From Gemmatimonadales bacterium (GTDB lineage: Bacteria > Gemmatimonadota > Gemmatimonadetes > Gemmatimonadales > GWC2-71-9), in assembly GCA_035577025.1 (NCBI GenBank), contig DATLVU010000052.1, forward strand, positions 7,303-71,302: 64,000 nt of DNA, read 5' to 3'. The notes under the pieces were generated by a model. The model saw nothing but the letters and a program-made list of their open reading frames with translations. It was not told where the DNA came from and searched no databases. Shown piece after piece: positions 39,972 to 52,470 of the stretch (its first letter is position 1; each line of letters begins with the position of its first letter). Both the position numbers and the translations under genes were made by a program.

Positions 39972-41936
39972 TCAGGCCGGCTGCTTCCCGGCGTGGCCGA
40001 GGGCCGCGCGCAGCTCGGCCAGGGTGAACGGCTTCCGCAGGTACGGCCGGCCGAGTTGTTCGAGGAACTGGAGGGTGTCGCCGCGGACCGTGTCGCCCGT
40101 GGCGAAGATGATCCGCTCGGCGACCCGCGGGTCCTGCCGGGCCAGCTTGGAGTACATCTCGCGTCCCGACAGGTGCGGCATCCGCAGATCGCAGATGATG
40201 ACGTCGAACGTGCCCGCCAAGGCCCGTTCCAGCGCATAGGTGCCGTCGCTCGCCACCTCGACGGTATGGCCCCAGCTCTCGAGCGTGGCGCGCATGTAGT
40301 GTAGGATGTGGGGCTCGTCGTCGACGACGAGAATACTGAGCTGGGGCGCCTCTGTCGCCAGCCGGGGTGCGGTCTCCGCGGGCGCAGCCTCCGCGCGCAG
40401 CGGCAGTTCCACGGTGAAGGTCGCTCCGCCGCCTGGTGGAGTCTCGAGCGTGATCCGCCCGCCATGCTCCTTCACGATCCCCTGGGAGATCGAGAGCCCG
40501 AGACCGGTTCCCGCGCCCTCAGGCTTGGTGGTGAAGAAGGGCTCGAACACGCGGGAGGCGATCTCTTCCGGCATGCCCGGTCCCGAGTCCGTCACGCTCA
40601 CCGCCACACTGTCGTGGACGCGCTTGGCGGTGATCCAGATCCGGCCCGACGGGGCGTCGCTCGCGATCGCCTGGCACGCGTTATTGATGATGTTGACGAA
40701 CACCTGCTTGATCTGGTTGGCGCTCACCTCGATGTCGGGAAGCCCCGGTTCGACCTCGAGTGTGGCCTCGACTTTGTCTGCCATCAGCTGGTTGCGCAGC
40801 AGCGCGAGCGTCGAGTCGAGCAGAACCCGGACCGGCAGCGGCGTCCGCTCGCCCTCCTGGCGCCGGGCGAAGGAGAGGAGGTTCTTGACGATCGTGGCCG
40901 CCCGCTCGGCCTCCTGACGAATCACCTGGAGCGGCTCCTGCAGCGACGGCGGGATCCCGCCCGCTTCGGCGAGGAAGTCGCTGAACCCGACGACCGAGGC
41001 GAGGGGGTTGTTTAGGTCGTGCGCCACACCGGCGATGAGTTGACCGATCGCCGACATTTTCTCAGACTGTATGAGCTGTTCCTGGAGGCGCCGGCGGTCG
41101 GTCTGATCCTCGAACACGAGCACGGCTGCGCCAGGATCGGCCATCGGGATCGCGGTGAGCAGGAGCGTCCGGTCCCCCGCGCGGATCTCGGCTGTGCTGG
41201 CGGTCGGCTCGGCGATCGCGCGCGCGACGGGATCCGACCACTGGGGCGGGAGCAAGCCGATCCAGGGGCGGCCCGGGATGGCCGTGACGGCGGTCTGAAT
41301 CAGCTCGGCGAATACGCGATTGGCTCGTCGGACCGTGCCGTGCGCGTCCACGATGCAGATCGCTTGGGAGATGGCGTCCACGGTCTTCTCCCACTCGCGC
41401 TTGGCGGACGACAGCAGCTCCACGAGGCGGGCGTTCTCGAGCGCGATGGCGGCCTGGGCCAGGACGGCGGCGACGAGCGTCAGCTCGGTCTTGCCGAAGG
41501 TGCCCGCGCGCTCGCTCGAGAGCGAGACGGCGCCCATGGTCCGACCGCCGGCCACCAGGGGCGCTCCAAGCCACGACGCCGGGGCGTCGGACAGCTCCGT
41601 GCCGCGCCGGCGGGCTTCCTCGCGGACGTCCTTGAGAAAGGCGAGCGGACCGCGCCGGAGCGCCAGCTGGAGCAAGGGGTCGTCGGTGCTGGCGGGGACA
41701 GGTTGCGTGTCGTAGGTCACCGCGAGCCGGTTCGTTTCGGCGTCTAGTAGGATGACGGACAGGCGGTCGGGCTTGAGCGTCTCGCCGAGGGCGCGCGCCA
41801 CGAGCTCGATCACCGTCGCCGGCCGGTATGCCCCGGTCAGTTCCTGGGCCAGCGTCGTCAGGCGCGCCAGCAACTCGGCGCCGCCTGGGGGGGTAGGAGC
41901 GCTAGAGGGAGGCTTGGGCATGATCCTGGCCAACAT
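39972..41936 (-). CDS. hybrid sensor histidine kinase/response regulator (GAF-PAS-HisKA-HATPase-REC)
   Basis: H-box AGVAHDLNNPLASV. ATPase motifs DSGPGMP and GTGLGLSI. C-terminal receiver ILVVDDEPH...DVIICDLRMPHLSG. The start could be ATG 41921. Confidence 0.9.
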   Translation of the reverse strand: MLARIMPKPPSSAPTPPGGAELLARLTTLAQELTGAYRPATVIELVARALGETLKPDRLSVILLDAETNRLAVTYDTQPVPASTDDPLLQLALRRGPLAFLKDVREEARRRGTELSDAPASWLGAPLVAGGRTMGAVSLSSERAGTFGKTELTLVAAVLAQAAIALENARLVELLSSAKREWEKTVDAISQAICIVDAHGTVRRANRVFAELIQTAVTAIPGRPWIGLLPPQWSDPVARAIAEPTASTAEIRAGDRTLLLTAIPMADPGAAVLVFEDQTDRRRLQEQLIQSEKMSAIGQLIAGVAHDLNNPLASVVGFSDFLAEAGGIPPSLQEPLQVIRQEAERAATIVKNLLSFARRQEGERTPLPVRVLLDSTLALLRNQLMADKVEATLEVEPGLPDIEVSANQIKQVFVNIINNACQAIASDAPSGRIWITAKRVHDSVAVSVTDSGPGMPEEIASRVFEPFFTTKPEGAGTGLGLSISQGIVKEHGGRITLETPPGGGATFTVELPLRAEAAPAETAPRLATEAPQLSILVVDDEPHILHYMRATLESWGHTVEVASDGTYALERALAGTFDVIICDLRMPHLSGREMYSKLARQDPRVAERIIFATGDTVRGDTLQFLEQLGRPYLRKPFTLAELRAALGHAGKQPA

Positions 41937-42630
41937 CCGAGGTCGGTTGCGAGGGCCGGACCTTCGGCTCGTGGCGCTCGCGCTGGCGCGCGGGGACGCC
42001 GCGCGCCGCGCGCGTTACGAGCGCGTGATGCTCGAGCAGGGACCCGATGAGCTCCTCGACGAGCCGGGCCTGCTCGAGGCCCTGCTCGCGGTGCGCACGC
42101 TCGCCGTTCCATCGCCCGCGCTGTTCGCCTACGTCGCGGTCCGTCACACGCTCCGGGCCGCCGGCGTCGACGACCGGCTGCTCGCCGACTACCTCGCGGC
42201 GCTCCTGCTGGAGTTCGGCGATCACGACCGGCGTTCCCGCGTGCGGAGTGGGGCCGACGACGAGACCTATCACTATCTGGTCGACATGGTGGAGGACCTC
42301 GCGGGGCTCGACGACGCTGGAGAACGCGGCTTCCTGCTGCGTGTGCACCTCGGGAACTACAGCCTGTGGCTTGCCGGTCTGTTTCCTGATTACATCGCCG
42401 CCCGGCGCTCGCGGAAAGGTGGGCCCGACCTCCCGTATTACGACGAGCTGGGCCGCCAGGGCTACCGCCTCGCCGCGGCGCATCGCCTCGCCGAACGCTT
42501 CGGTGTGGCTCCGATCTATCGCGCCGCCGCCGACCGGTTCCCGACGCTCCGCGTGGCGTTCAATCGCCTGAGCGACCGGGTGTTCTTCCCGAACGTCAGT
42601 ACTCCCGAGAAGATACTTCGAAATCTGTGA
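41920..42630 (+). CDS. hypothetical protein
   Basis: 236-aa ORF from ATG 41920, or from the internal ATG 42025. No recognisable motif. Convergent with the SCP2 gene. Confidence 0.5.
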   Translation: MILANIRGRLRGPDLRLVALALARGDAARRARYERVMLEQGPDELLDEPGLLEALLAVRTLAVPSPALFAYVAVRHTLRAAGVDDRLLADYLAALLLEFGDHDRRSRVRSGADDETYHYLVDMVEDLAGLDDAGERGFLLRVHLGNYSLWLAGLFPDYIAARRSRKGGPDLPYYDELGRQGYRLAAAHRLAERFGVAPIYRAAADRFPTLRVAFNRLSDRVFFPNVSTPEKILRNL

Positions 42631-42688
42631 GCCGTGAGCGGTGAGCGGGACTGTAACGACCTCTCACCGCTTACCGCTCCCCGCTCAC
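42627..42688. repeat. inverted heptamer arrays forming a long hairpin between convergent genes (likely bidirectional terminator)
   Basis: GTGAGCC GTGAGCG GTGAGCG (42627-42647), a 16-nt spacer, then TCACCGC TTACCGC TCCCCGC TCAC (42664-42688). It overlaps both stop codons (42628-42630 and 42685-42687). Confidence 0.85.
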
Positions 42689-43107
42689 TCGTCCAGGAAT
42701 CGCGTCGGCACCCGCGTGGCCGCCTCGACCAGCTGCTCCGCGGACTTCACGAATCGGACGACAATCGGCAGCGAGCCCTTGAGCGACAGTTTCCGCTGCA
42801 TGATCCCGGCGATCGGTCCGAGCTCCTTGCGAATCACGCGCTTCCAGTGAGCGTAATCCCCTGAGATCACGAAGGGCGCCTTGTCGGCGTCACCCGGAGA
42901 GACCACCCGGGCGGCCCGGCAGGCACCGCGATCGAGGTCGAGCCAGATGCCGACCGGATCGGCGATCCCGATCTCGGGCTGTCGGTTCACCACGAGCGCG
43001 ACCGGACCGTGCGTCCACTCGAGCGACGCCGCGCGGTATGCGTCGCTTGCGTTGATCGCCACCTCGTACGCTTGGACCCATTCGGCCGACGGAAACGCCA
43101 GGCTCAT
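42685..43107 (-). CDS. SCP2 sterol-binding-domain protein
   Basis: 140 aa. The pattern FVISGDYAHWKRVIRKELGPIAGIMQRKLSLKGSL is typical of SCP-2-like domains. ATG 43107 overlaps the upstream stop. Confidence 0.7.
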   Translation of the reverse strand: MSLAFPSAEWVQAYEVAINASDAYRAASLEWTHGPVALVVNRQPEIGIADPVGIWLDLDRGACRAARVVSPGDADKAPFVISGDYAHWKRVIRKELGPIAGIMQRKLSLKGSLPIVVRFVKSAEQLVEAATRVPTRFLDE

Positions 43108-43790
43108 GGCAAGGCCTCCGCAAAACTGCCGAATACCGCCGCGTCCAGATCTTCTTCCGGGTGCCACTGAACGGCGAGCGTCCAGGGCGCGTTCGTGTCC
43201 CGCGGCTCGACGCTCTCGATCACGCCGTCTGCGGCCCAGGCGGTGGCGCGCAGGCCCGGGGCAAGGTCGCGAATCGACTGATGGTGCCGCGTGTTCACCA
43301 TCGCGGTCTCGGCGTCCACCGCGCGGTGCACGCGTGTACGGGGCTCGACCCGCACGGCGTGCCGCGCGTTCGTATCGGTGTGATCGATTGGTCCGGGGCG
43401 CTCGCTCGGGAGATCCTGGTACAGGGTTCCGCCCAGCGCCACGTTCAATATCTGGAGGCCGCGACAGATCGCCAACACCGGGAGTCCCCGGCGCTCCGCG
43501 CCGGCGATGAGCGCGAGCTCTACCGCGTCGCGCGCGGCGTCGGTCTCCCCCAGCTTCGGGTGAGGCTTCGCCCCGTAGCGGGCCGGCTCGACGTCCTCGC
43601 CGCCCGAGAGCACGAGGCCCTGCACCCGGTCGAGCACCGAGCAGGCCGCATCCGGATCGAGCAGGGGAGCAACGAGCACGGGCACCATGCCTGCACGGGT
43701 GAGCGCGCGCACGTAGGCGGTGTTCAACGCGACCCGCTCACGTCCGTCGTCGGTGCGGCGCGTCGCGCTGACGGCGACGATCTTGGTCAC
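43104..43790 (-). CDS. class I glutamine amidotransferase / peptidase C26 (gamma-glutamyl hydrolase, PuuD-like)
   Basis: LSGGEDVEP, the nucleophile elbow LAICRGLQILNVALGGTLYQDL, HHQSI and QWHPE. GTG 43790 is the proposed start; the longest ORF runs to 44258. Confidence 0.8.
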   Translation of the reverse strand: MTKIVAVSATRRTDDGRERVALNTAYVRALTRAGMVPVLVAPLLDPDAACSVLDRVQGLVLSGGEDVEPARYGAKPHPKLGETDAARDAVELALIAGAERRGLPVLAICRGLQILNVALGGTLYQDLPSERPGPIDHTDTNARHAVRVEPRTRVHRAVDAETAMVNTRHHQSIRDLAPGLRATAWAADGVIESVEPRDTNAPWTLAVQWHPEEDLDAAVFGSFAEALP

Positions 43791-44305
43791 GCAGGGGGGA
43801 CGGGGGCGGGGGGCGCTCCGAACAGCGGGCACCGCGGGTTGCTCATGTTCGCCCACTGCACCCGCACGCCGAACAAGGGGATCGTGCGGTCGCCCGCGAC
43901 GAGCTGGCCGATGCTCGGATACCCCGGCGGCGGTCGCTGCGACTCGTAGATGAGCACACCCTGCGCTCGTTGCGTGGAGTCGTCCACCACGAGGAGCGCA
44001 TAGACGGTCGAGTCGGACACCGATGTGGCGGGGAATCCCGAGCCCTGGTAGTCCATCGTCAATGCGCCCTTGGTGTAGGTCACCTGCACCGTGCTTTGCG
44101 CTGTCGTACCGGCGACGCGAACGGGCAGCGATGCCGGCAACCCCCGGGGCGGCTCGGTGAGCACGAACGGGAGGTGCCTCAGCTGTTCCTGGATGAGCGA
44201 CGGGGAAATGAGGAGCGCCATCCCGCAGGTGGGAGAGCGCGTCCGGTCCCCGCCGCACGCCACGGCGAAGATCGTGGCCACGCGTGCCAGGTCGCGGGGC
44301 ATCAT
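43787..44305 (-). CDS. hypothetical lipoprotein
   Basis: MMPRDLARVATIFAVACGG lipobox. The start overlaps the upstream stop. I recognise no family. Confidence 0.6.
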   Translation of the reverse strand: MMPRDLARVATIFAVACGGDRTRSPTCGMALLISPSLIQEQLRHLPFVLTEPPRGLPASLPVRVAGTTAQSTVQVTYTKGALTMDYQGSGFPATSVSDSTVYALLVVDDSTQRAQGVLIYESQRPPPGYPSIGQLVAGDRTIPLFGVRVQWANMSNPRCPLFGAPPAPVPPA

Positions 44306-44772
44306 GGGACGGTCACCACTTCCGTGACTGTGGTTGGGTACGGCGCGTCCGCGGCGATGCGCCGCAGCTCGAGGCTGTCGGCGTCGGGGACGAGCGATGT
44401 ACCGAAGCGCAGCGTGTCGCCCCCCCCGCCCCCGACCAGCCACGCGGCCGTTCGAGCCTTGGTCGAGGCGGGCCGGTCGAGCTCCACGCCGATGATCCAG
44501 CGTCCGGTGTGGCCCAGCGGACCACCCTCGACCTTGCTCCGCTCGGGCTCCCCGTGATAGCGGCGGTACAGGCGCCCCGAAATCCAGTCGCCCGCATGCG
44601 TCTCGAGGGTGATCCGGAGATAGACGGTGGAGTCAACGGGCACGGCGCTCGTGGCCGCTGCTCGTCCAGACCGAAAGATGCGTGTCAGCTCCCAGGTACC
44701 CTCGAGCGGGCCGGTTTGCGCGGTCGAGAAGGAGAGTGCCATCGCGAGCAGCACGCCGGCGGCGTGGATCAT
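44302..44772 (-). CDS. hypothetical secreted protein (lipocalin-like GTWEL motif)
   Basis: Signal peptide MIHAAGVLLAMALSFSTAQ followed by GPLEGTWELTR. It lies 10 nt downstream of the receptor gene. Confidence 0.6.
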   Translation of the reverse strand: MIHAAGVLLAMALSFSTAQTGPLEGTWELTRIFRSGRAAATSAVPVDSTVYLRITLETHAGDWISGRLYRRYHGEPERSKVEGGPLGHTGRWIIGVELDRPASTKARTAAWLVGGGGGDTLRFGTSLVPDADSLELRRIAADAPYPTTVTEVVTVP

Positions 44773-44782
44773 CGCCCCCAAT

Positions 44783-46975
44783 CTAATACGTCCAGGTCGC
44801 GACGACCGACATCGTGCGTACGGGCTCGAGGGTACGCGGCACGAAGTTGTACATGTAGTTCAGGGCATTGGTGACGAGCAGTCGTGCGGAAACCGGACCC
44901 CGCTCCCATCCCGCGCGCAGGTCCAGCACGCGCGCCGCCACGCGGGGATCCTGGCCGAAGATCTGGTCGAGCTCGATGCGCTCGATCCTGCTCGTGTACC
45001 GGAAATCGGCGCCCACGGACCACGATCGCCACCGATAGTCGGAGCTCACGGTGAAGAGATGCCTCGGCCGGAACGACAGGACCGTGTCGCGGGTCAGGTC
45101 GCGGCTATCGAGATACAGATAGGCAAGGGTAGCGGTCAGCGCCGGAACGGGCGTGACCGCGATCGATGCGTCGAGCCCTCTGAGCCTCGCACGCGAGACG
45201 TTCCGGATCTGGATCTCAGGCGTGGAATCCACGAGGATGAACGCGGGCTCGATTAGCTGGCTCGCCTCGGTCCAGAAGAGCGCAGCATCGAGGTGACCCC
45301 ACGACGCAAATGCACCCGAGTTGCCGATCTCGAACGACCACGCGGTCTCCGGGCGGAGATCGGGGTTCGGAACCACCTTGAATCCGAATGCCGTCGTCGT
45401 CACGTACCGCTCGGCGAGCGTCGGGGCACGGAAGCCGCGTCCGGCGGAGGCACGCCAGGTGCCCAGTGCGCTGGGCATCACGGCCCCGATGCGCGGACTT
45501 GCTACGGTCGTCGCGATGGAGTCATCGACGATGACGTGGTCGAGCCGCGCGCCCGCGGTCAGCATGAGGCGACCGATTCGCTGCTCCGCCTCTCCGTACG
45601 GCGCGAGCTCGATCTCCGTATGGTCGCCCACGCGCCCGGAGTCGCCGAAGATGTCGCTCGTGGTTCCCGTATGCGCGCCTTCGATCCCCACCGTGAATAC
45701 GCGGTCATCGCCACCCCCGACATGGAGTACCCCACGCGCTTCGGCGCCGAGGCGATTCGCCACGGACCAATCGTCGGGATTCGCGTCCGTAAAGTGGGTG
45801 CGCAGCCACGAGCCGCGCGCCTGCCACGCGAAGCTAGGCGACGAGGTTCGATCGAGCGTGGCCGCGACGTATCCCTTGTTGGACCGCGTGTAGCTGCCGC
45901 GCCCCGAGTTGTCGATCATGAACGGTTGATAGGCTTGCCCGCGCGTGTCACACGCTCCGGCGACGCACCAGGTGGGGAAGTTCTGGTACTGATGGCTGGT
46001 CCATGCGCCCGAGGCCGTCACGCGCGTGCCAGGCTCGGGTACCCACTCCGCGCGGCCTGACGTCTCCCATTGGTTGCTCCGGTCCTGCTCGCGATAACCA
46101 TCCGAATGGCGCCCGCCCAGTGTGAGGCTGCCACGCACGGTCTCGGTCCCATAGGAGCCCGTGGCGTCAACGCCCGCCAGTCCACCGGTGTAGTCCCGGA
46201 ACTGCCACGCATCGTATGGCGGGTTCGCATATGTGCCACCTGTCGCGCGGAATCGCCCGTGAAAGCCGACGGGGATATCGTGCGTTATCAGATTCACCAC
46301 GCCGCCCAGGGCGGCTGATCCGTACAGCGCGGATCCCGCGCCCTTCACCGCCTCGACGTGATCCACGTCGGCGACCGGGACCATGTCCCAGTCGATGCCG
46401 CCTCGGTCGCCCTGGTTGGCCGGCACACCGTCCACGAGCAGCAGGACGCGCGACCCCAGGCCTTCGACAAAGCCGCTCGAGCCGCGGATGTTCACCTGTC
46501 CGTTGAGGAACAGGACGCCAGGGGCCTTGTTCACGGCCTCGTCCACCGTACTCACGGCCCGCCGGGCGAGGTCGGTGTCGCTCACGAGCGCCACGCTCGT
46601 GACGGACTGATCGAGGAGCTGGGAGTGCTTCGCGGCCGTGACGATGGTCGGTTGGAGCTCGACGGCCGCGGCTTCGAGACGATAGTCGCGCTCGAGGGAG
46701 TCGCCCGCGGCCAGGACGACGGTGTCCACGATCGATCGCAAACCGAGGTACGCGACGCGCACCACGGCCGTTCCCCCGACGATCATCAAGCGATAGCGAC
46801 CGGTGGCGTCCGCGGTCGTTTCGCGGCCGCTCTTTACATCGCGCACGTTCGCTCGGACGGGGTGGCTGAGCGTGTCCCGCACGACGCCGTACAGCGTGGC
46901 TGTTCCCTGCGCCGTCGCGGCGCCGAGGGGTATGGTGGCGAGCCCCATCAGAAGGAGGAGGCGTCTCAGGGGCAC
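44783..46975 (-). CDS. TonB-dependent receptor with carboxypeptidase-regulatory-like N-domain
   Basis: Signal peptide, then LYGVVRD...ATGRYRL domain, then plug (VNIRGSSGF...VEAVKGAGSALYGSAALGGVVNLIT). The barrel ends in ATWTY. Confidence 0.9.
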   Translation of the reverse strand: MPLRRLLLLMGLATIPLGAATAQGTATLYGVVRDTLSHPVRANVRDVKSGRETTADATGRYRLMIVGGTAVVRVAYLGLRSIVDTVVLAAGDSLERDYRLEAAAVELQPTIVTAAKHSQLLDQSVTSVALVSDTDLARRAVSTVDEAVNKAPGVLFLNGQVNIRGSSGFVEGLGSRVLLLVDGVPANQGDRGGIDWDMVPVADVDHVEAVKGAGSALYGSAALGGVVNLITHDIPVGFHGRFRATGGTYANPPYDAWQFRDYTGGLAGVDATGSYGTETVRGSLTLGGRHSDGYREQDRSNQWETSGRAEWVPEPGTRVTASGAWTSHQYQNFPTWCVAGACDTRGQAYQPFMIDNSGRGSYTRSNKGYVAATLDRTSSPSFAWQARGSWLRTHFTDANPDDWSVANRLGAEARGVLHVGGGDDRVFTVGIEGAHTGTTSDIFGDSGRVGDHTEIELAPYGEAEQRIGRLMLTAGARLDHVIVDDSIATTVASPRIGAVMPSALGTWRASAGRGFRAPTLAERYVTTTAFGFKVVPNPDLRPETAWSFEIGNSGAFASWGHLDAALFWTEASQLIEPAFILVDSTPEIQIRNVSRARLRGLDASIAVTPVPALTATLAYLYLDSRDLTRDTVLSFRPRHLFTVSSDYRWRSWSVGADFRYTSRIERIELDQIFGQDPRVAARVLDLRAGWERGPVSARLLVTNALNYMYNFVPRTLEPVRTMSVVATWTY

Positions 46976-47475
46976 GGGGGGCTGTAGTAGTGGCAGGGGG
47001 GGTGCATGTGACCGAAGTCGATGACGAAGTTGATCGAGTCCGCCGGCTGCGTCGCTCCGGCGACGGTCACCACGCCGGGCTGACTGGTGTCAGCTGGATC
47101 ACGGTAGTAGCCAGCCTCGCGCAGCGTGGAGTCGGCGTTGGTGAGGTTGAATCCCTGCTTTACCCACACGGCCAGGACCCACTCGTAGCGTCCCGGCGGC
47201 ACGGCGGCGTCATAGAAGGTCGGGATGCCGGTGAGTGGGAGCGCCCGCAGGGCGGCGAGTGATGGCTGAAATTTGAACAAGCTATCCTGCGAATGCGGAA
47301 ACGTGTGGTAGGCGACGACGTACACGGCCTGGGTGCTCTCGGGCGCCGTGCCGTTGAACGTCACCGTGCCGCAGATGCCGGAACACGTGGTGGGACGCAG
47401 CCCGTCGTTGCAAGCCAACGCGGCCACGACGGCGAGCGCGGCCCGCGCAACCCGACTCCGCATGGCAGCAATCAT
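46966..47475 (-). CDS. hypothetical lipoprotein
   Basis: MIAAMRSRVARAALAVVAALACN lipobox (the start could be 47463). The stop overlaps the receptor start by 10 nt. Cys-rich C-terminus (HPPCHYYSPPCP). Confidence 0.6.
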   Translation of the reverse strand: MIAAMRSRVARAALAVVAALACNDGLRPTTCSGICGTVTFNGTAPESTQAVYVVAYHTFPHSQDSLFKFQPSLAALRALPLTGIPTFYDAAVPPGRYEWVLAVWVKQGFNLTNADSTLREAGYYRDPADTSQPGVVTVAGATQPADSINFVIDFGHMHPPCHYYSPPCP

Positions 47476-47539
47476 TGGCGCGTGCCCCCGGAGCGTCAAC
47501 TTGACAGCCTGTTTCACGGCGGAATACGTTCTTTCCGCC

Positions 47540-47704
47540 ATGCCGATTTACGAATACCGCTGCACGAAGTGTCGCGCGCGCTTCAGCCAGCAACAGGCGA
47601 TCGACGAGCACGCCCGCAAGCGGCCGGCCTGCCCCAAATGCAAGTCGCACGCGGTGGAGCAGGTACTGTCGCCGTTCTTCGCGAAAACCGTCCGGAAAAG
47701 CTAG
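47540..47704 (+). CDS. FmdB-family zinc-ribbon protein
   Basis: MPIYEYRCTKCRARF...CPKCKS is the CxxC_CxxC_SSSS pattern. Confidence 0.8.
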   Translation: MPIYEYRCTKCRARFSQQQAIDEHARKRPACPKCKSHAVEQVLSPFFAKTVRKS

Positions 47705-47710
47705 CGCGCC

Positions 47711-48280
47711 GTGTTCGAGCGCCTCCGGCACGCCTTGGGCGCCGCCCTGGACGCGGCGACGCCGCCGGGGGATTTGCGTGACCTGACGCGCCAGATGCGC
47801 GAGGCGGTGGTCGAGGCGAAGGTCGCCGTGCAGGAAACGCGCGACGCCGTGGCCCGCACCGAGGGTGAGCTGACGCAGGAGCGGCAGCGGCTCGCCGACG
47901 CCGAGCGCCGCGGTCGACTGGCGGCGGAGATCCAGGACGCGGAGACGGCCGAGATCGCGCAGCGGTTCGCCGCGAAGCATCGGGAACGGGTGACGGTGCT
48001 CGAGAAGAAGCTGGCGGCACTCCGGGATGAATCGAGTCTCTACGAGCGCGAGCTCGGTGACATGCAGACGCAGCTCGCCCGCGCCGAGCGGGAACGGCCG
48101 CAGACCGAGGCGGAGCGCTCAGCCGAGCGGGCCTGGCGCAATCTGCAGAGCGCCGGGGGCGCCCGCCCGGGTGTCGACCCCAAGGAAGAGCTGCTCAAGT
48201 CGCAGATGGACCGCGCGGCGCGCGAGGCAGCCGCCGACCGCCAGCTCGAGGAGCTCAAGAAAAAGATGAAGAAGGACTGA
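47711..48280 (+). CDS. coiled-coil protein, PspA/IM30-like (tentative)
   Basis: 189 aa, almost entirely heptad-like charged helix (EAKVAVQETRDAVARTEGELTQERQRLADAERR). The family call is weak. Confidence 0.5.
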   Translation: MFERLRHALGAALDAATPPGDLRDLTRQMREAVVEAKVAVQETRDAVARTEGELTQERQRLADAERRGRLAAEIQDAETAEIAQRFAAKHRERVTVLEKKLAALRDESSLYERELGDMQTQLARAERERPQTEAERSAERAWRNLQSAGGARPGVDPKEELLKSQMDRAAREAAADRQLEELKKKMKKD

Positions 48281-48283
48281 CCG

Positions 48284-49270
48284 GTGCTCGCTCTAGTACT
48301 CCTCGCCTTGCAGGCGCCGACCCCGACCCCGCGCCCGCCCGACCTGCTCAAGCGAGCTCACACCTACAGTATCGTCGCCTACGACTCCGCCACGGGGGAC
48401 TTGGGCGTTGCCGTTCAATCCAAGTTCCCGAACGTCGGGGGCATCGTGCCGTGGGCCAAGTCCGGCGTGGGTGCGGTGGCCACGCAGTCGCTCGGCAACA
48501 CGGATTACGGCGACAAGGGTCTCGAGCTCATGGCGATGGGCGCCAGTGCGCCGGAAGCGATGCGCATTGTGATGCGAACGGATCCGCGGCCCGCGCAGCG
48601 GCAGGTGGGCATGATCGACGCGCACGGCGCGGCGGCGAGCTGGACGGGCGACTCCTGCTTCGACTGGGCCGGAGGGCGTAGCGGCGGTGGGAGCGTGGGT
48701 GGGAAGGGCCAGCTGATCGCGGGGCGAGGCTACGCGGCGCAGGCGAACATCATGGTCTCGGACCAGACCGTGAAGAACATGGCGGCGGCCTTCGAGCGTT
48801 CGACCGGCGCGCTGTCGGACCGGTTGCTCGCGGCGCTCATCGCCGGCCAGGCGGGCGGGGGCGACAAGCGGGGTATGGAATCGGCGGCGCTGCTCGTGGT
48901 GCGGAAGAACGGCGGATATCTCGGGCTGAACGATCGCTACATCGATATCCGCGTGTACGACGACTCCAATCCGATTCGCGAGCTCGAGCGCTTGTATCGT
49001 CTCCACCAGCTGTACTTCTTCACGAGCCGCCCCGAAGACCTCGTCCCGCTCACGCCGGCCCTGGTGAAGCGTTTCGAGCCGATCCTTATGCGCGAGCCGG
49101 TCGGCCAAGCGGAGAAGTGGCTGGACGCGCCTCAAGGCACCGCGAACCGCAAGTTTCTCGAAGCGCTCGCCAATTTCATGTACTGGGAGAACTACGACGT
49201 CCGCGTGCGGATGGACGGCAAGATCGACACGGTGGTGGTGAACGACATCTTCAAGCGGCGCAAGCCATGA
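48284..49270 (+). CDS. DUF1028-family (Ntn-hydrolase-like) protein with C-terminal extension
   Basis: HTYSIVAYDSATGDLGVAVQSKFPNVGGIVPWAKSGVGAVATQS is typical of the DUF1028 N-terminus. Confidence 0.8.
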   Translation: MLALVLLALQAPTPTPRPPDLLKRAHTYSIVAYDSATGDLGVAVQSKFPNVGGIVPWAKSGVGAVATQSLGNTDYGDKGLELMAMGASAPEAMRIVMRTDPRPAQRQVGMIDAHGAAASWTGDSCFDWAGGRSGGGSVGGKGQLIAGRGYAAQANIMVSDQTVKNMAAAFERSTGALSDRLLAALIAGQAGGGDKRGMESAALLVVRKNGGYLGLNDRYIDIRVYDDSNPIRELERLYRLHQLYFFTSRPEDLVPLTPALVKRFEPILMREPVGQAEKWLDAPQGTANRKFLEALANFMYWENYDVRVRMDGKIDTVVVNDIFKRRKP

Positions 49271-49356
49271 GCTTGATCGGCGGCGTGCTGTCCTGGTTCC
49301 GGGTGGCGTTCGGGCCGGGACCGCGCTCCGCGGACGGGCGGCGCTCCGGAGGAAGC

Positions 49357-49752
49357 ATGGATATCAAGCGCGACCGCATGGTGTTCCTCGGCTACGGCAA
49401 GTATTGGCGCTCGGACGGCATCATCGGACTGATGCCGATCGAGGAAGAGCGCGGGCCCAAGCGCCGGACCAGTGTGTTCGTCCAGGGGCGTCCCGATCCG
49501 ATCGTGGCGTCGCGGACGGAGCAAAGCATCCTGGAGGACATGGGCGCCACCGAGAGCGGCTTCCAGACGCAGGCGCTGCGCGAAGCCGTCACGGAGCTGC
49601 TCGCGGCGTTTCACGAGTTCTCGCCGGTGCTGCGGCGCGCCCTGCTGAGCGAGAACCATTTCGACGTGGAGCAGTGGGAGCAGCGCGTGGGCGAGCTATT
49701 ACGCTCGCAGCCGGCCGCGGAATCCGACGATCAGAATGAGTTGTTCGAGTGA
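49357..49752 (+). CDS. hypothetical protein
   Basis: ATG 49357 follows GGAGGAAGC; the alternative ATG 49267 overlaps the upstream stop. No confident family; there is only a faint DUF370-like feel. Confidence 0.5.
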   Translation: MDIKRDRMVFLGYGKYWRSDGIIGLMPIEEERGPKRRTSVFVQGRPDPIVASRTEQSILEDMGATESGFQTQALREAVTELLAAFHEFSPVLRRALLSENHFDVEQWEQRVGELLRSQPAAESDDQNELFE

Positions 49753-51068
49753 CCGCGGCGACCCCCGTTTCGCCGTTACGCGACACCAGCTGGCTGGGGC
49801 ACCCCCGCGGGCTGTCGACCCTCTTCTTCACGGAGATGTGGGAGCGGTTCAGCTACTACGGGATGCGCGGATTCCTCATCCTGTACATGGTCAAGGCGCT
49901 CGGCTTCAGCGACCAACACGCGGGCGCCGTGTACGGGAACTACGTCGGCAGCGTGTGGCTCGCGGCGATCTTCGGTGGGTTTATCGCGGACCGCTGGCTC
50001 GGCCACTATCGCAGCGTCCTCATCGGCGGCGCCGTCATCGCGCTGGGCCATTTCACCCTCGCCTTGCACGCGCTGCCGTTCTTCTATACCGGTCTGTCCC
50101 TGATTGTGGTGGGTACCGGTTTGCTCAAACCGAACGTAAGCACGCTCGTGGGGGGACTGTACGATCAGGGCGACGAACGACGCGATGCTGGGTTTTCGAT
50201 CTTCTATATGGGCATCAACCTCGGGGCGTTTCTCGGCCCCATTATCGCGGGGAAGCTCGCCGAGGGCGTGGATTGGCACATCGGGTTCGCGTGCGCTGGG
50301 GTCGGCATGACCTTGGGACTCGTGCAGTACGTGGTTGGCCGAAGGCGGCTGCAGCCGGCGATGGATCGCCTGGCCGCCCGACCTGGGCCTGGGTCGACCG
50401 CTGTAGACATGTCCGGAGCTGATTTCACGGTCCAAGACTCGAAACGCGTAGCGGCGGTTGTCGTCTTCTTCGCGTTCGCCTCGCTTTTCTGGGGGGCGTA
50501 CGAGCAAGCCGGATCGACGCTCAATCTGTTCGCAGACCGCTACGTGCACCTGGAGCTGCTCGGGATAAAGCTCTATGCATCGTGGTTTGTATCGATCCAG
50601 GCTGCCTTCGTGATCCTGCTGTCGCCGGCCTTCGCGTGGTTGTGGGTGAAGCTCGGACCACGACAGCCCTCAAGTCCGGCCAAGTTCGCACTCGCGCTCA
50701 TGTTCGTCGGCTTGGCATTCGTCCTCCTCATCCCAGCGGGTGCGATCGCGCAGGGAGGCGTGAAGATCAGCCCCTTATGGCTGGTCGGGTGCTACTTCAT
50801 CGAAGAGCTCGGCGAGCTGTGCCTGAGCCCCGTCGGGCTGTCGGTCGTCACGAAGCTCGCACCGACACGGATCGTTGGACTCATGCTCGGTGTGTTCTTC
50901 CTCTCCAACGCCTTGGGTAACAAGCTGGCCGGCTGGTCGGCCGGGTTCATCAGCACGACCCCGTTGCCCACCCTGTTCGGCGCGACCGCAGCGGTGACTC
51001 TGGGTGCCGCCGTGGTCATGTTCTTGCTCATTCGGCCGGTGCAGCGATTGATGGGCGACGTGCGTTGA
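49749..51068 (+). CDS. POT/PTR2-family proton-dependent oligopeptide transporter
   Basis: GHPRGLSTLFFTEMWERFSYYGMRGFLILYM signature; about 12 TM segments. Confidence 0.92.
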   Translation: MTAATPVSPLRDTSWLGHPRGLSTLFFTEMWERFSYYGMRGFLILYMVKALGFSDQHAGAVYGNYVGSVWLAAIFGGFIADRWLGHYRSVLIGGAVIALGHFTLALHALPFFYTGLSLIVVGTGLLKPNVSTLVGGLYDQGDERRDAGFSIFYMGINLGAFLGPIIAGKLAEGVDWHIGFACAGVGMTLGLVQYVVGRRRLQPAMDRLAARPGPGSTAVDMSGADFTVQDSKRVAAVVVFFAFASLFWGAYEQAGSTLNLFADRYVHLELLGIKLYASWFVSIQAAFVILLSPAFAWLWVKLGPRQPSSPAKFALALMFVGLAFVLLIPAGAIAQGGVKISPLWLVGCYFIEELGELCLSPVGLSVVTKLAPTRIVGLMLGVFFLSNALGNKLAGWSAGFISTTPLPTLFGATAAVTLGAAVVMFLLIRPVQRLMGDVR

Positions 51069-51970
51069 CGCGCTACCGGGCACTTCTCGGGATGCTCTGC
51101 TTCGGCACGGCATCCGGGGCTACCGCCCAGGGGACCGCCCCTCGCGAGAGCACCGTCGTGGTGTTGCTCGGCACCGGCATGCCGCGCCCCGACCCGGAGG
51201 CATCGGGTCCGGCGACGGCGATCGTCGTCGGCGCACGAGTGTTCCTGGTGGACGCGGGCCCGGGCGTCGAGCGGCGGCTCGCCGCCGCCCACCTCCCGAT
51301 CGACGGCGTGACCGCACTGTTCGTCACCCACCTCCATAGCGATCACACGCTCGGGTATCCGGACCTGATCTTCACGTCGTGGGTGATGGGGCGAACGAAA
51401 CCGCTTGCGGCGTACGGTCCCCACGGCCTGCGTGCCATGACCGACCATATCCTCGCGGCCTGGGCGGAGGACATCGACGTGCGCACCAACGGGCTAGAGA
51501 AGCGCACGCCGGGCGGGTACCGGGTCGACGTGCACGAGATCAGTCCGGGGGTTGTGTACGACTCAGCGGGAGTGCGCGTGACGGCATTCGCCGTCGAGCA
51601 TGGGACCTGGCGCGAGGCGTATGGCTACCGCTTCGACACGCCGGGCCGGAGCGTGGTAATCTCCGGCGACACCAAACCAAGTGAGAGCCTGGTGCGCGCG
51701 GCCGCGGGAGCGGACGTGCTGGTGCACGAGGTCTACCCCGCCGCGCGCATGGTCGCCAACGCCACCGAGAGCACCCCCTGGCCGACCTACATGCGCGAGT
51801 TTCACACGTCGGACGTGGAGCTCGGGCAGCTCGCGGCGCGCATCCGGCCCAAGCTGCTGATCCTGTCGCACATCATCCGCCGCGGCGCGACCGACGAGGA
51901 ACTGCTCGCTGGTGTGCGGCAGTCGTTCGACGGCCGGGTGGTCGTGGGGCACGATCTGGAGCGGTACTGA
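51065..51970 (+). CDS. secreted MBL-fold metallo-hydrolase
   Basis: Signal peptide and the THLHSDH motif. The start overlaps the POT gene stop. Confidence 0.85.
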   Translation: MTRYRALLGMLCFGTASGATAQGTAPRESTVVVLLGTGMPRPDPEASGPATAIVVGARVFLVDAGPGVERRLAAAHLPIDGVTALFVTHLHSDHTLGYPDLIFTSWVMGRTKPLAAYGPHGLRAMTDHILAAWAEDIDVRTNGLEKRTPGGYRVDVHEISPGVVYDSAGVRVTAFAVEHGTWREAYGYRFDTPGRSVVISGDTKPSESLVRAAAGADVLVHEVYPAARMVANATESTPWPTYMREFHTSDVELGQLAARIRPKLLILSHIIRRGATDEELLAGVRQSFDGRVVVGHDLERY

Positions 51971-51980
51971 ACCGCTCCGC

Positions 51981-52008
51981 GGGAGGTTGGGGAGGTTGGG
52001 GGAGGTTA
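51981..52008. repeat. three tandem GGGAGGTT(G/A) units (Shine-Dalgarno-like GGAGG cores)
   Basis: Read directly from the sequence; the period is 9-10 nt. It lies in the intergenic region, next to the left REP. Confidence 0.9.
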
Positions 52009-52056: not shown

Positions 52057-52454
52057 TGAACCCGTCCAGTCCGAGGGATGCGATCGGGGTGGTGCTCGAA
52101 TTGGCGCGCCACGTAGACGATCGCACGGGCGAGATCCTTCTTGTGCAGGGTTGCCGCGTAGAAACCTCGCGACCAGCGCACCGCGCCAGGAATTCGGCGG
52201 TTGGCGCGTACCGCTCCGACACTCTTGGCCAATCGTACGAAGTCGCTCTGGCGCGTATTCGGCCGAAAGCTCACGACCAGATGGACATGGTCCGCTAGGA
52301 TCGCCTGCCGTAGGACCCGCACACCGGAATTGTGGCAGGCGCTCCTGATTGCGCTCTCGAGGTCGTTAGCTGCCGTTCGGTCGATGCATCCTACACGCTT
52401 CCAGGTGTGCCAGGTGACGTGGGCGTAAAGCTGGTATGCGCGGTGATCGGACAT
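52053..52454 (-). CDS. REP-associated tyrosine transposase (IS200/Y1_Tnp family)
   Basis: YQLYAHVTWHTW..., the HUH motif ADHVHLVVSF, and C-terminal IVYVARQFEHH carrying the candidate catalytic Tyr. ATG 52454. Confidence 0.85.
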   Translation of the reverse strand: MSDHRAYQLYAHVTWHTWKRVGCIDRTAANDLESAIRSACHNSGVRVLRQAILADHVHLVVSFRPNTRQSDFVRLAKSVGAVRANRRIPGAVRWSRGFYAATLHKKDLARAIVYVARQFEHHPDRIPRTGRVH

Positions 52455-52470
52455 TGGACTGGTGCCTTTA

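Follow-up and report, generated by a model that had tools for sequence, protein, structure and literature searches.

A conserved, probable operon of Gemmatimonadales that joins a TonB-dependent receptor gene to a C26-family hydrolase gene

Introduction

What would bring the gene for an outer-membrane receptor into one operon with genes for a cytoplasmic amide hydrolase and small binding proteins? The question is raised by a six-gene locus on contig DATLVU010000052.1 of a Gemmatimonadales bacterium (assembly GCA_035577025.1), of which we analysed a stretch of 64,000 nt (here called the window; all positions are in window numbering unless a locus number precedes them). The six genes, g1 to g6, lie on the minus strand and encode a lipoprotein, a TonB-dependent receptor (TBDR), an exported protein with a GTWEL motif, a second lipoprotein, a hydrolase of the Peptidase_C26 family and an SCP2-fold protein. 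Gemmatimonadota are abundant in soil and barely cultured, and only a minority of their many TBDRs have a known substrate. A first-pass annotation of the window had called the combination of importer, amide hydrolase and hydrophobic-ligand carrier uncommon, and had taken it as a hint at uptake and processing of an amide-linked hydrophobic compound. Here we report that the six-gene block is real, conserved in uncultured soil Gemmatimonadales and probably an operon, that among the 107 related loci that could be judged its receptor and hydrolase genes are either both present or both absent, and that the two candidate carriers of hydrophobic ligands are dispensable.

Results

Six closely spaced genes in conserved order

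The place and order of the six genes, which run in one direction through 42685-47475, agree with the first-pass annotation: the g1 lipoprotein gene (46966-47463, 165 aa) is followed by the TBDR gene g2 (44783-46975, 730 aa), the GTWEL protein gene g3 (44302-44772, 156 aa), the lipoprotein gene g4 (43787-44305, 172 aa), the C26 or class I glutamine-amidotransferase-like hydrolase gene g5 (43104-43790, 228 aa, GTG start) and the SCP2 gene g6 (42685-43107, 140 aa). Reading the junctions directly in the sequence, we found a 10-nt overlap of g1 and g2 (GTGCCCCTGA), a 10-nt gap between g2 and g3, and 4-nt start/stop overlaps at g3/g4 (ATGA), g4/g5 (GTGA) and g5/g6 (ATGA). These are the four overlaps and the single gap that had been described before. 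Public gene calls for the same contig differ at g1/g2, where g2 is begun at a downstream ATG, leaving a short gap past the g1 stop in place of the overlap.

Comparison with four orthologues gave dN/dS values between 0.05 and 0.21, so that every one of the six genes is under purifying selection; the lowest value (0.05) is that of the SCP2 gene. Long open reading frames on the opposite strand are to be expected, because the G+C content of the window is ∼68%. Pfam or NCBIfam matches were obtained for g2, g5 and g6 only; g1, g3, g4 and their homologues gave none, relaxed thresholds included. The earlier remark that three of the products belong to no recognisable family therefore stands at the level of sequence families, and needs amending for g3, which can be modelled as a lipocalin-like protein (see below).

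We then scanned the clade with one genome per species and obtained 36 loci, all from Gemmatimonadales/Gemmatimonadota metagenome-assembled genomes (MAGs). The six genes keep their order wherever the contig reaches far enough, and their spacing is confined to overlaps or to gaps of ≤ 32 nt, g4/g5 being at −4 nt in almost all species. At g4/g5 and g5/g6 the 4-nt overlap has survived deep divergence. The gene neighbourhood, whose presence in relatives the first-pass annotation had left to be checked, is thus conserved, and the refuting outcome named there, its absence from every relative, does not apply.

Receptor and hydrolase genes are not found apart at the judged loci

Context look-ups for distant homologues and a metagenome scan seeded with intermediate g4 sequences added ∼80 loci to this set (∼115 in total). 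The TBDR and C26 genes sit on opposite sides of g4. Nevertheless, neither was ever seen without the other: among 107 judged loci both were present in 102 and both absent in five. All 102 receptor-bearing loci have g1, TBDR, g4 and C26 together, which makes these four genes the invariant core. Outside the core, g3 and SCP2 are present or absent independently of each other. Among related loci in which both TBDR and C26 are retained, at least 19 have no SCP2 and at least 30 have no g3.

The complete arrangement g1-TBDR-g3-g4-C26-SCP2 (variant A) was found at 59 loci, those of the window's clade included. Variant B (g1-TBDR-g3-g4-C26) has no SCP2 and runs directly into a kinase gene, variant C (g1-TBDR-g4-C26-SCP2) has no g3, and variant D (g1-TBDR-g4-C26; 16 fully judged loci) has neither. 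In variant F, from distant Gemmatimonadota, the same flanking genes enclose g4 and nothing else of the operon (30-38% identity; loci L042, L045 and L047-49). The absences of g3 and SCP2 in variants B to D are real, because the gaps at these places are < 100 nt and too short for missed genes. In a neighbour-joining tree of g4 and C26 the g3-bearing loci, and likewise the SCP2-bearing loci, are each split among separate groups, which argues for repeated gain or loss of both genes.

Across loci, the importer and amide hydrolase are hence not regularly accompanied by a hydrophobic-ligand carrier, contrary to the emphasis of the first-pass annotation. The uptake and processing of an amide-linked hydrophobic compound, which had been proposed on that basis, fares differently in its two parts: the inseparability of TBDR and C26 fits a link between uptake and amide processing, and the emphasis on a hydrophobic cargo is weakened, because both the SCP2 and the lipocalin-like protein can be dispensed with. 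That receptor and hydrolase appear to behave as an evolutionary unit is the strongest functional statement that the data allow.

The distribution across loci identifies g4 as the probable oldest resident, around which the operon would have been assembled by accretion. Its modules, as judged from their separate occurrence, would be a portable g1-receptor cassette, the resident g4, the C26 hydrolase and two optional small binding proteins (g3 and g6). The company that g4 keeps in distant lineages hints at an ancestral role related to the envelope: at L049 (1907-4247) there is a 4-nt overlap of g4 with a GT4 glycosyltransferase gene, which a GT2 gene follows, and at L042 and L047 the g4 homologue is followed by GT2 and DUF3108 genes. 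At another group of loci (L056, L057, L059, L060 and L062), in which SCP2 and the gene for a flanking 236-aa protein are both absent, the next gene on that strand, ∼54 nt beyond C26, encodes a hybrid histidine kinase and may be co-transcribed with the operon.

Promoter, start codon and probable terminator

The start of g1 is separated by 76 bp from a divergent gene for an FmdB-type zinc-ribbon protein (conserved start ATG 47540, MPIYEYRC..., 54 aa). A promoter scan placed a −35 box, TTGACG, at 47494..47499 on the minus strand, inside the invariant palindrome GTCAAGTTGAC (47495-47505), and a −10 box, AATGAT, at 47471..47476 on the same strand, 17 nt past the −35 box and ending 7 nt before ATG 47463. 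The motif GGTCAAGTTGACG (47495-47505) was invariant in 33/33 aligned orthologous upstream regions; there is exactly one copy per in-clade locus and one in the whole window. Read on its opposite strand, the palindrome supplies a TTGAC −35 box for the FmdB-type gene, followed by a conserved TAnnnT element. The interval 47463-47542 thus looks like a compact bidirectional promoter, in which the −35 boxes of the operon and of the FmdB-type gene overlap back to back. One public call of the zinc-ribbon gene (67 aa, L002; 47501-47704, plus strand) begins inside the promoter palindrome.

The first-pass annotation had started g1 at ATG 47475, giving a gene of 46966-47475 and a product of 169 aa. This codon lies in the −10 box, and many orthologues have ATC, ATT or AAG in its place. 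All orthologues share the ATG at 47463 (MRSRV...), which is most likely the start. Because the −10 box ends 7 nt ahead of ATG 47463, the operon transcript is predicted to have little or no leader; the same is predicted for the divergent transcript, both −10 boxes ending 7-9 nt ahead of their ATG. Collectively, the six genes are probably coupled in translation and co-transcribed from one σ70-type promoter.

We considered the palindrome as an operator and set this aside in favour of two back-to-back promoters, because distant lineages that have no receptor keep only the half of the motif that serves the divergent gene. In these lineages g4 has a −10 box of its own (TACAAT or TAGAAT) near its ATG. 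The spacer between the −35 and −10 boxes is not conserved among the 33 upstream regions, in which no conserved operator was visible, and an Rfam scan of the whole window returned no riboswitch or other Rfam element. No riboswitch or conserved repressor site is therefore to be seen here.

At the other end of the operon, a GC-rich hairpin (42627..42688, minus strand) overlaps the g6 stop and lies between g6 and the convergent gene for the 236-aa protein, which ends at 42630. It has no T-run, and its folding energy of −37.9 kcal/mol (z = −5.0) was matched by none of 200 shuffled sequences. The hairpin is a probable bidirectional terminator.

The receptor and its putative partner lipoprotein

The g2 protein scores well above the Pfam cut-offs for the plug (PF07715; E = 2.6e-20, 73.3 bits versus 23.9) and the β-barrel (PF00593; E = 1e-37, 131.5 bits versus 27). 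Its layout comprises a signal peptide (MPLRRLLLLMGLATIPLGAATAQG), a weak CarboxypepD_reg-like domain (E = 1.2e-5, below cut-off), a TonB-box-like segment PTIVTAA (in ...ELQPTIVTAA... ahead of the plug), the plug, a 22-strand-type barrel and the C-terminus ...ATWTY; signal peptide, TonB box and aromatic C-terminus were judged by eye. The hallmarks of a TonB-dependent transporter, that is plug and barrel, signal peptide, TonB box and aromatic end, are thus all found in g2. In contrast, its scores were far below the cut-offs of the NCBIfam equivalogs for TonB-B12 (139 versus 599.7 bits), TonB-hemin (135 versus 316.9), CirA (85 versus 745) and TonB-siderophore (78 versus 223.5), and its matches in the Protein Data Bank (PDB; CirA, PhuR and BtuB) span the plug region only. 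By these comparisons g2 is classed as a member of the TonB-dependent transporter family that falls outside every characterised subfamily.

With the small 22-strand transporters of the BtuB, CirA and PhuR/ShuA type, g2 shares the signal peptide, the TonB-box-like segment, a plug and barrel of ∼630 aa and the aromatic last residue. Unlike them it has an N-terminal CarboxypepD_reg-like extension, in addition to the low equivalog scores, and its operon comes without a riboswitch, conserved operator, periplasmic binding protein, ABC importer or TonB-ExbBD genes. The extension, together with an adjoining small lipoprotein gene that stays with the receptor across contexts, recalls the SusC/SusD, BtuB-BtuG and XusA-XusB pairs of Bacteroidota. 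However, g2 scores only 48 bits against the SusC/RagA model (TIGR04056; cut-off 368), and no SusD/RagB Pfam match was found for g1, g3 or g4. The g1 protein differs from SusD, BtuG and XusB in its size (∼165 aa), in preceding its receptor and in having neither similarity to them nor any Pfam match.

The signal peptide of g1 ends in the lipobox AALAC (...VVAALAC), whose Cys is invariant in the orthologue alignment (the lipoboxes of g1 and g4 were judged against a PROSITE-type pattern). Two local Cys pairs follow. They behave as disulfides, since where they are lost (L032, L036 and L037) they are lost pairwise. A metal site in the C-terminal segment HMHPPCH was considered and rejected: the His/Met-rich motif (HMH) is not conserved among orthologues, and the pairwise loss of the Cys residues is that expected of disulfides. 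The idea that g1 duplicates the N-terminal domain of the receptor was likewise rejected (probability of 3.3%).

Distant g1 homologues (31-41% identity) always precede a TBDR of like architecture, with a 4-nt overlap, in contexts that are unrelated to one another. One such pair is found in CP070823.1, a 3.04-Mb record of a Gemmatimonadota MAG, where it is followed by Poly_export (Wza-like) and epimerase genes; no g3, g4, C26 or SCP2 gene lies within 10 kb on either side. Longer lipoproteins (P0278, P0317 and P0363) carry two to four g1-like domains in tandem, the 542-aa protein having four; the domain is accordingly modular, and no Pfam model describes it. In one predicted protein of 272 aa, P0289, the first ∼107 residues of a g1 orthologue are joined directly to the receptor N-terminal domain and plug; a fusion or deletion that arose naturally and kept the frame is one possible cause, an error of assembly another.

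The C26 hydrolase and the SCP2 protein

The assignment of g5 to the C26 amidotransferase family was upheld by its Pfam match (PF07722; E = 6e-62, 209.7 bits versus a cut-off of 20.5), by PDB matches to Lin1909 (3fij; 9e-40), SpuA (7d4r; 1e-26) and PuuD (6vtv; 3e-23), and by the catalytic triad, Cys109 (AICRG), His210 and Glu212 (WHPE) in the alignment with Lin1909. The triad and an HHQ motif are ≥ 97% conserved in 95 orthologues. By family and triad, g5 is accordingly an intact Peptidase_C26 enzyme that is predicted to be a hydrolase. It resembles the γ-glutamyl-amine hydrolases PuuD and SpuA in family, fold and Cys-His-Glu triad, and also in having no signal peptide. Unlike PuuD, it reaches only 93.2 bits against the PuuD equivalog (NF008471; cut-off 266), and no gene for a glutamine-synthetase-like γ-glutamyl ligase (PuuA-like) is present in the operon or in the surrounding 20-kb stretch of the contig. 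The depositor name of its closest solved relative, Lin1909, gives no function.

The SCP2 assignment of g6 was equally confirmed (PF02036; E = 5.8e-8, 33.4 bits versus a cut-off of 21.3). The single-domain protein of ∼140 aa aligns end to end (residues 8-133, E = 5e-20) with the Thermus thermophilus SCP2 protein TT1886 (1wfr/2cx7); we take g6 to be a true SCP2 relative. Both g5 and g6 have no signal peptide and are predicted to be cytoplasmic. The genomic partners of g6 differ from those of its Thermus relative, g6 being coupled to a C26 hydrolase gene, and this only in some lineages. TT1886 is presumably TTHA0401, whose gene shares an operon in Thermus with that of a zinc-binding dehydrogenase and not with a C26 gene; the FadR-regulon link is given no weight here as a pointer to function. 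A plasmid search with SCP2 gave distant haloarchaeal matches only.

Two lineage-restricted families, g3 and g4

Homologues of g3 (∼250) are confined to Gemmatimonadales-type records. The family is highly conserved, and its GTWEL motif is invariant. An AlphaFold2 (AF2) model of g3 (pLDDT 89) has ten strands, and its top 50 Foldseek matches in the PDB are all lipocalins (E of 4e-3 to 5e-2, TM-scores of 0.36-0.48). Searches of the window protein and 17 homologues at E-values up to 5 gave no match to a Pfam lipocalin or other family, and a profile search of PDB sequences was empty. The description of g3 as lipocalin-like can thus be kept for the fold class only: g3 is predicted to be an up-and-down β-barrel with an N-terminal G-x-W (in GTWEL), as in lipocalins and other calycins (retinol-binding protein, nitrophorins and bacterial Blc). 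It differs from these in having no sequence-family membership, in TM-scores below 0.5, in the ten strands of its model and in invariant residues that are rich in Arg and Tyr (e.g. GRLYRRY). Judging by these residues, its pocket does not look like a purely hydrophobic one.

The g4 family (∼350 homologues) is found only in Gemmatimonadota records and unlabelled metagenome contigs. Its members have a lipobox, FAVAC (...IFAVAC), with an invariant Cys, the conserved residues Cys27 and Cys159, and the motifs VVDDSTQRA and NPRCPL. The AF2 model of g4 reaches a pLDDT of only 69; it found no PDB fold with an E-value better than 0.7, and the g4 profile found nothing among PDB sequences. Paralogy of g3 and g4, suggested by a common DSTVY motif, was rejected (hhalign probability of 0.9%). 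When g1, g3 and g4 of the window were concatenated and searched with phmmer against 1.84 billion representative proteins, only 222 matches were obtained at E ≤ 1e-3, which marks all three as apparently small, lineage-restricted families.

The flanking genes

On both flanks of the operon, the genes for the FmdB-type protein, a 189-aa coiled-coil protein, a DUF1028 protein, the 236-aa protein and a hybrid kinase show synteny equal to that of the six operon genes. Conservation within the clade can therefore not separate functional linkage from general synteny. Several Pfam-less flanking proteins are syntenic even in distant lineages, namely the 236-aa protein (convergent with g6), the 189-aa coiled-coil protein and one of 161 to 165 aa; the genes concerned lie at 41920-42630 and 47711-49752 on the plus strand. 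Genes for DUF1028, a POT/PTR2 peptide transporter and a metallo-β-lactamase-fold protein occupy ∼48284-51982 (plus strand), with oligopeptide ABC transporter genes beyond. This peptide-uptake neighbourhood is kept whether or not the receptor operon is there. Its POT-family transporter gene, 2 kb upstream of the operon, is not specific evidence, because it is equally present in receptor-less lineages. A Y1-transposase gene (IS200/IS605-type; ∼52065-52466, or 2307-2708 in L002) is called on only one of two public copies of the contig.

Three loci have apparent defects in core genes. At L009 (5743-6353) the C26 match ends at residue 119, and 187 nt separate the stop of the g5 frame from the SCP2 start; at L013 (5796-6356) and L027 (2318-2907) the first ∼190-220 residues of the receptor are missing from the match. 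There are no runs of N in any of these stretches, and the defects may be frameshifts, pseudogenes or assembly errors.

Discussion

Why, then, are a receptor and a hydrolase kept together? Of the roles we can envisage for this accretion-built operon, uptake of a small compound followed by amide cleavage in the cytoplasm is the likeliest, and we give it an even chance of being correct, ranking it above the three alternatives discussed below. A small organic compound would pass the outer membrane through the receptor, which its partner lipoprotein g1 would assist; handling at that membrane or in the periplasm would fall to g4, joined by g3 where present; a carrier in the inner membrane, whose gene would lie outside the operon, would bring the compound into the cell; the C26 enzyme would split a γ-glutamyl-type amide bond in the cytoplasm; and SCP2, where present, would buffer a poorly soluble product. 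From sequence, models and gene contexts we infer the transport and hydrolysis steps, the locations of the proteins and the nature of the substrate alike. A literature search for a link between C26 enzymes and TonB-dependent uptake found, in the collection of papers searched, none that mentions both.

Several observations weigh against this proposal. The operon encodes no inner-membrane transporter, TonB-ExbBD system or γ-glutamyl ligase, and the specificity of g5 cannot be read from its sequence (93 versus 266 bits for the PuuD equivalog). Co-transcription is deduced from the spacing of the genes and the single recognisable promoter. Paralogous g1-TBDR pairs occur without C26, and the g4 of distant lineages has glycosyltransferase genes, not a receptor gene, as its coupled partners. 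Finally, the loci are not phylogenetically independent and synteny within the clade extends over all 12 kb of the neighbourhood, so that the co-occurrence of TBDR and C26 may reflect just one or two historical events.

These points lead to the strongest competitor, a historical accident in which the genes share promoter and coupling and have no substrate in common: the g1-TBDR pair would import nutrients of a general kind, g4 would keep an ancestral role of its own as a lipoprotein of the envelope, and C26, alone or together with SCP2, would be a cytoplasmic housekeeping function that came to lie downstream. The solitary or glycosyltransferase-coupled g4 of distant lineages, the g1-TBDR pairs that travel without the other operon genes, the dispensability of SCP2 and g3, the dehydrogenase partner of the presumed Thermus SCP2 gene TTHA0401, and the equal synteny of the flanking genes are all as such an accident would have it. 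It does not readily explain why TBDR and C26, gained or lost on either side of g4, were never discordant in 107 judged loci, nor why the 4-nt overlaps g4/g5 and g5/g6 have outlasted deep divergence. We consider the accident possible, and clearly less probable than uptake with amide cleavage.

In its boldest form the uptake-and-cleavage proposal would make the invariant core of g1, receptor, g4 and C26 an undescribed import-and-deconjugation pathway for a γ-glutamyl- or similarly amide-conjugated compound, employing two lipoprotein families without known relatives, with g3 and SCP2 as interchangeable chaperones of a poorly soluble moiety. So specific a version is speculative, and we hold it to be unlikely as it stands.

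More doubtful still is uptake of a metal cofactor (haem, cobalamin or a siderophore), with g3 as a hemophore-like or siderocalin-like binder. The receptor's best NCBIfam and PDB similarities are indeed to BtuB, haem/haemoglobin receptors and CirA, and the fold matches of g3 include nitrophorins, siderocalin and a haem-binding plant lipocalin. However, the equivalog scores fall far short (139 versus 600 bits for TonB-B12), the PDB matches cover only the plug, and many receptor-bearing lineages have no g3. Nor does the locus have the regulatory or enzymatic trappings of such a system: the window has neither a cobalamin riboswitch nor any other Rfam element, no conserved operator is visible in the promoter spacer, the operon has no gene for a haem oxygenase, ABC importer or reductase, and the His/Met/Cys motif of g1 is not conserved. 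Least probable of all is a part in envelope biogenesis, with the locus in a region for surface glycan or lipid assembly and the barrel and lipoproteins serving export or envelope maintenance, since its support, the GT4 overlap and GT2 gene at L049, GT2 and DUF3108 genes after g4 elsewhere, glycosyltransferase genes just beyond the kinase gene on the window's own contig and the Poly_export and epimerase genes of CP070823.1, is adjacency only, whereas it is hard to see what a C26 hydrolase in the cytoplasm would do for export, and plug-and-barrel receptors of this size are, to our knowledge, importers in all well-studied cases.

The locus is best seen as a lineage-restricted form of a common locus type, in organisms not yet in culture, and it can serve both to guide annotation and to illustrate how operons grow by accretion. 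It defines three protein families that had no annotation, g3, g4 and the receptor-partner lipoprotein domain of g1, and offers a clean natural experiment in the gain and loss of modules around a receptor. Should the link between receptor and C26 hydrolase not be functional, the operon would be a well-documented product of accretion and a caution against inferring function from tight coupling. If the link is functional, it would point to amide-conjugated compounds, a class of nutrients not currently tied to TonB-dependent uptake, as substrates in these soil bacteria.

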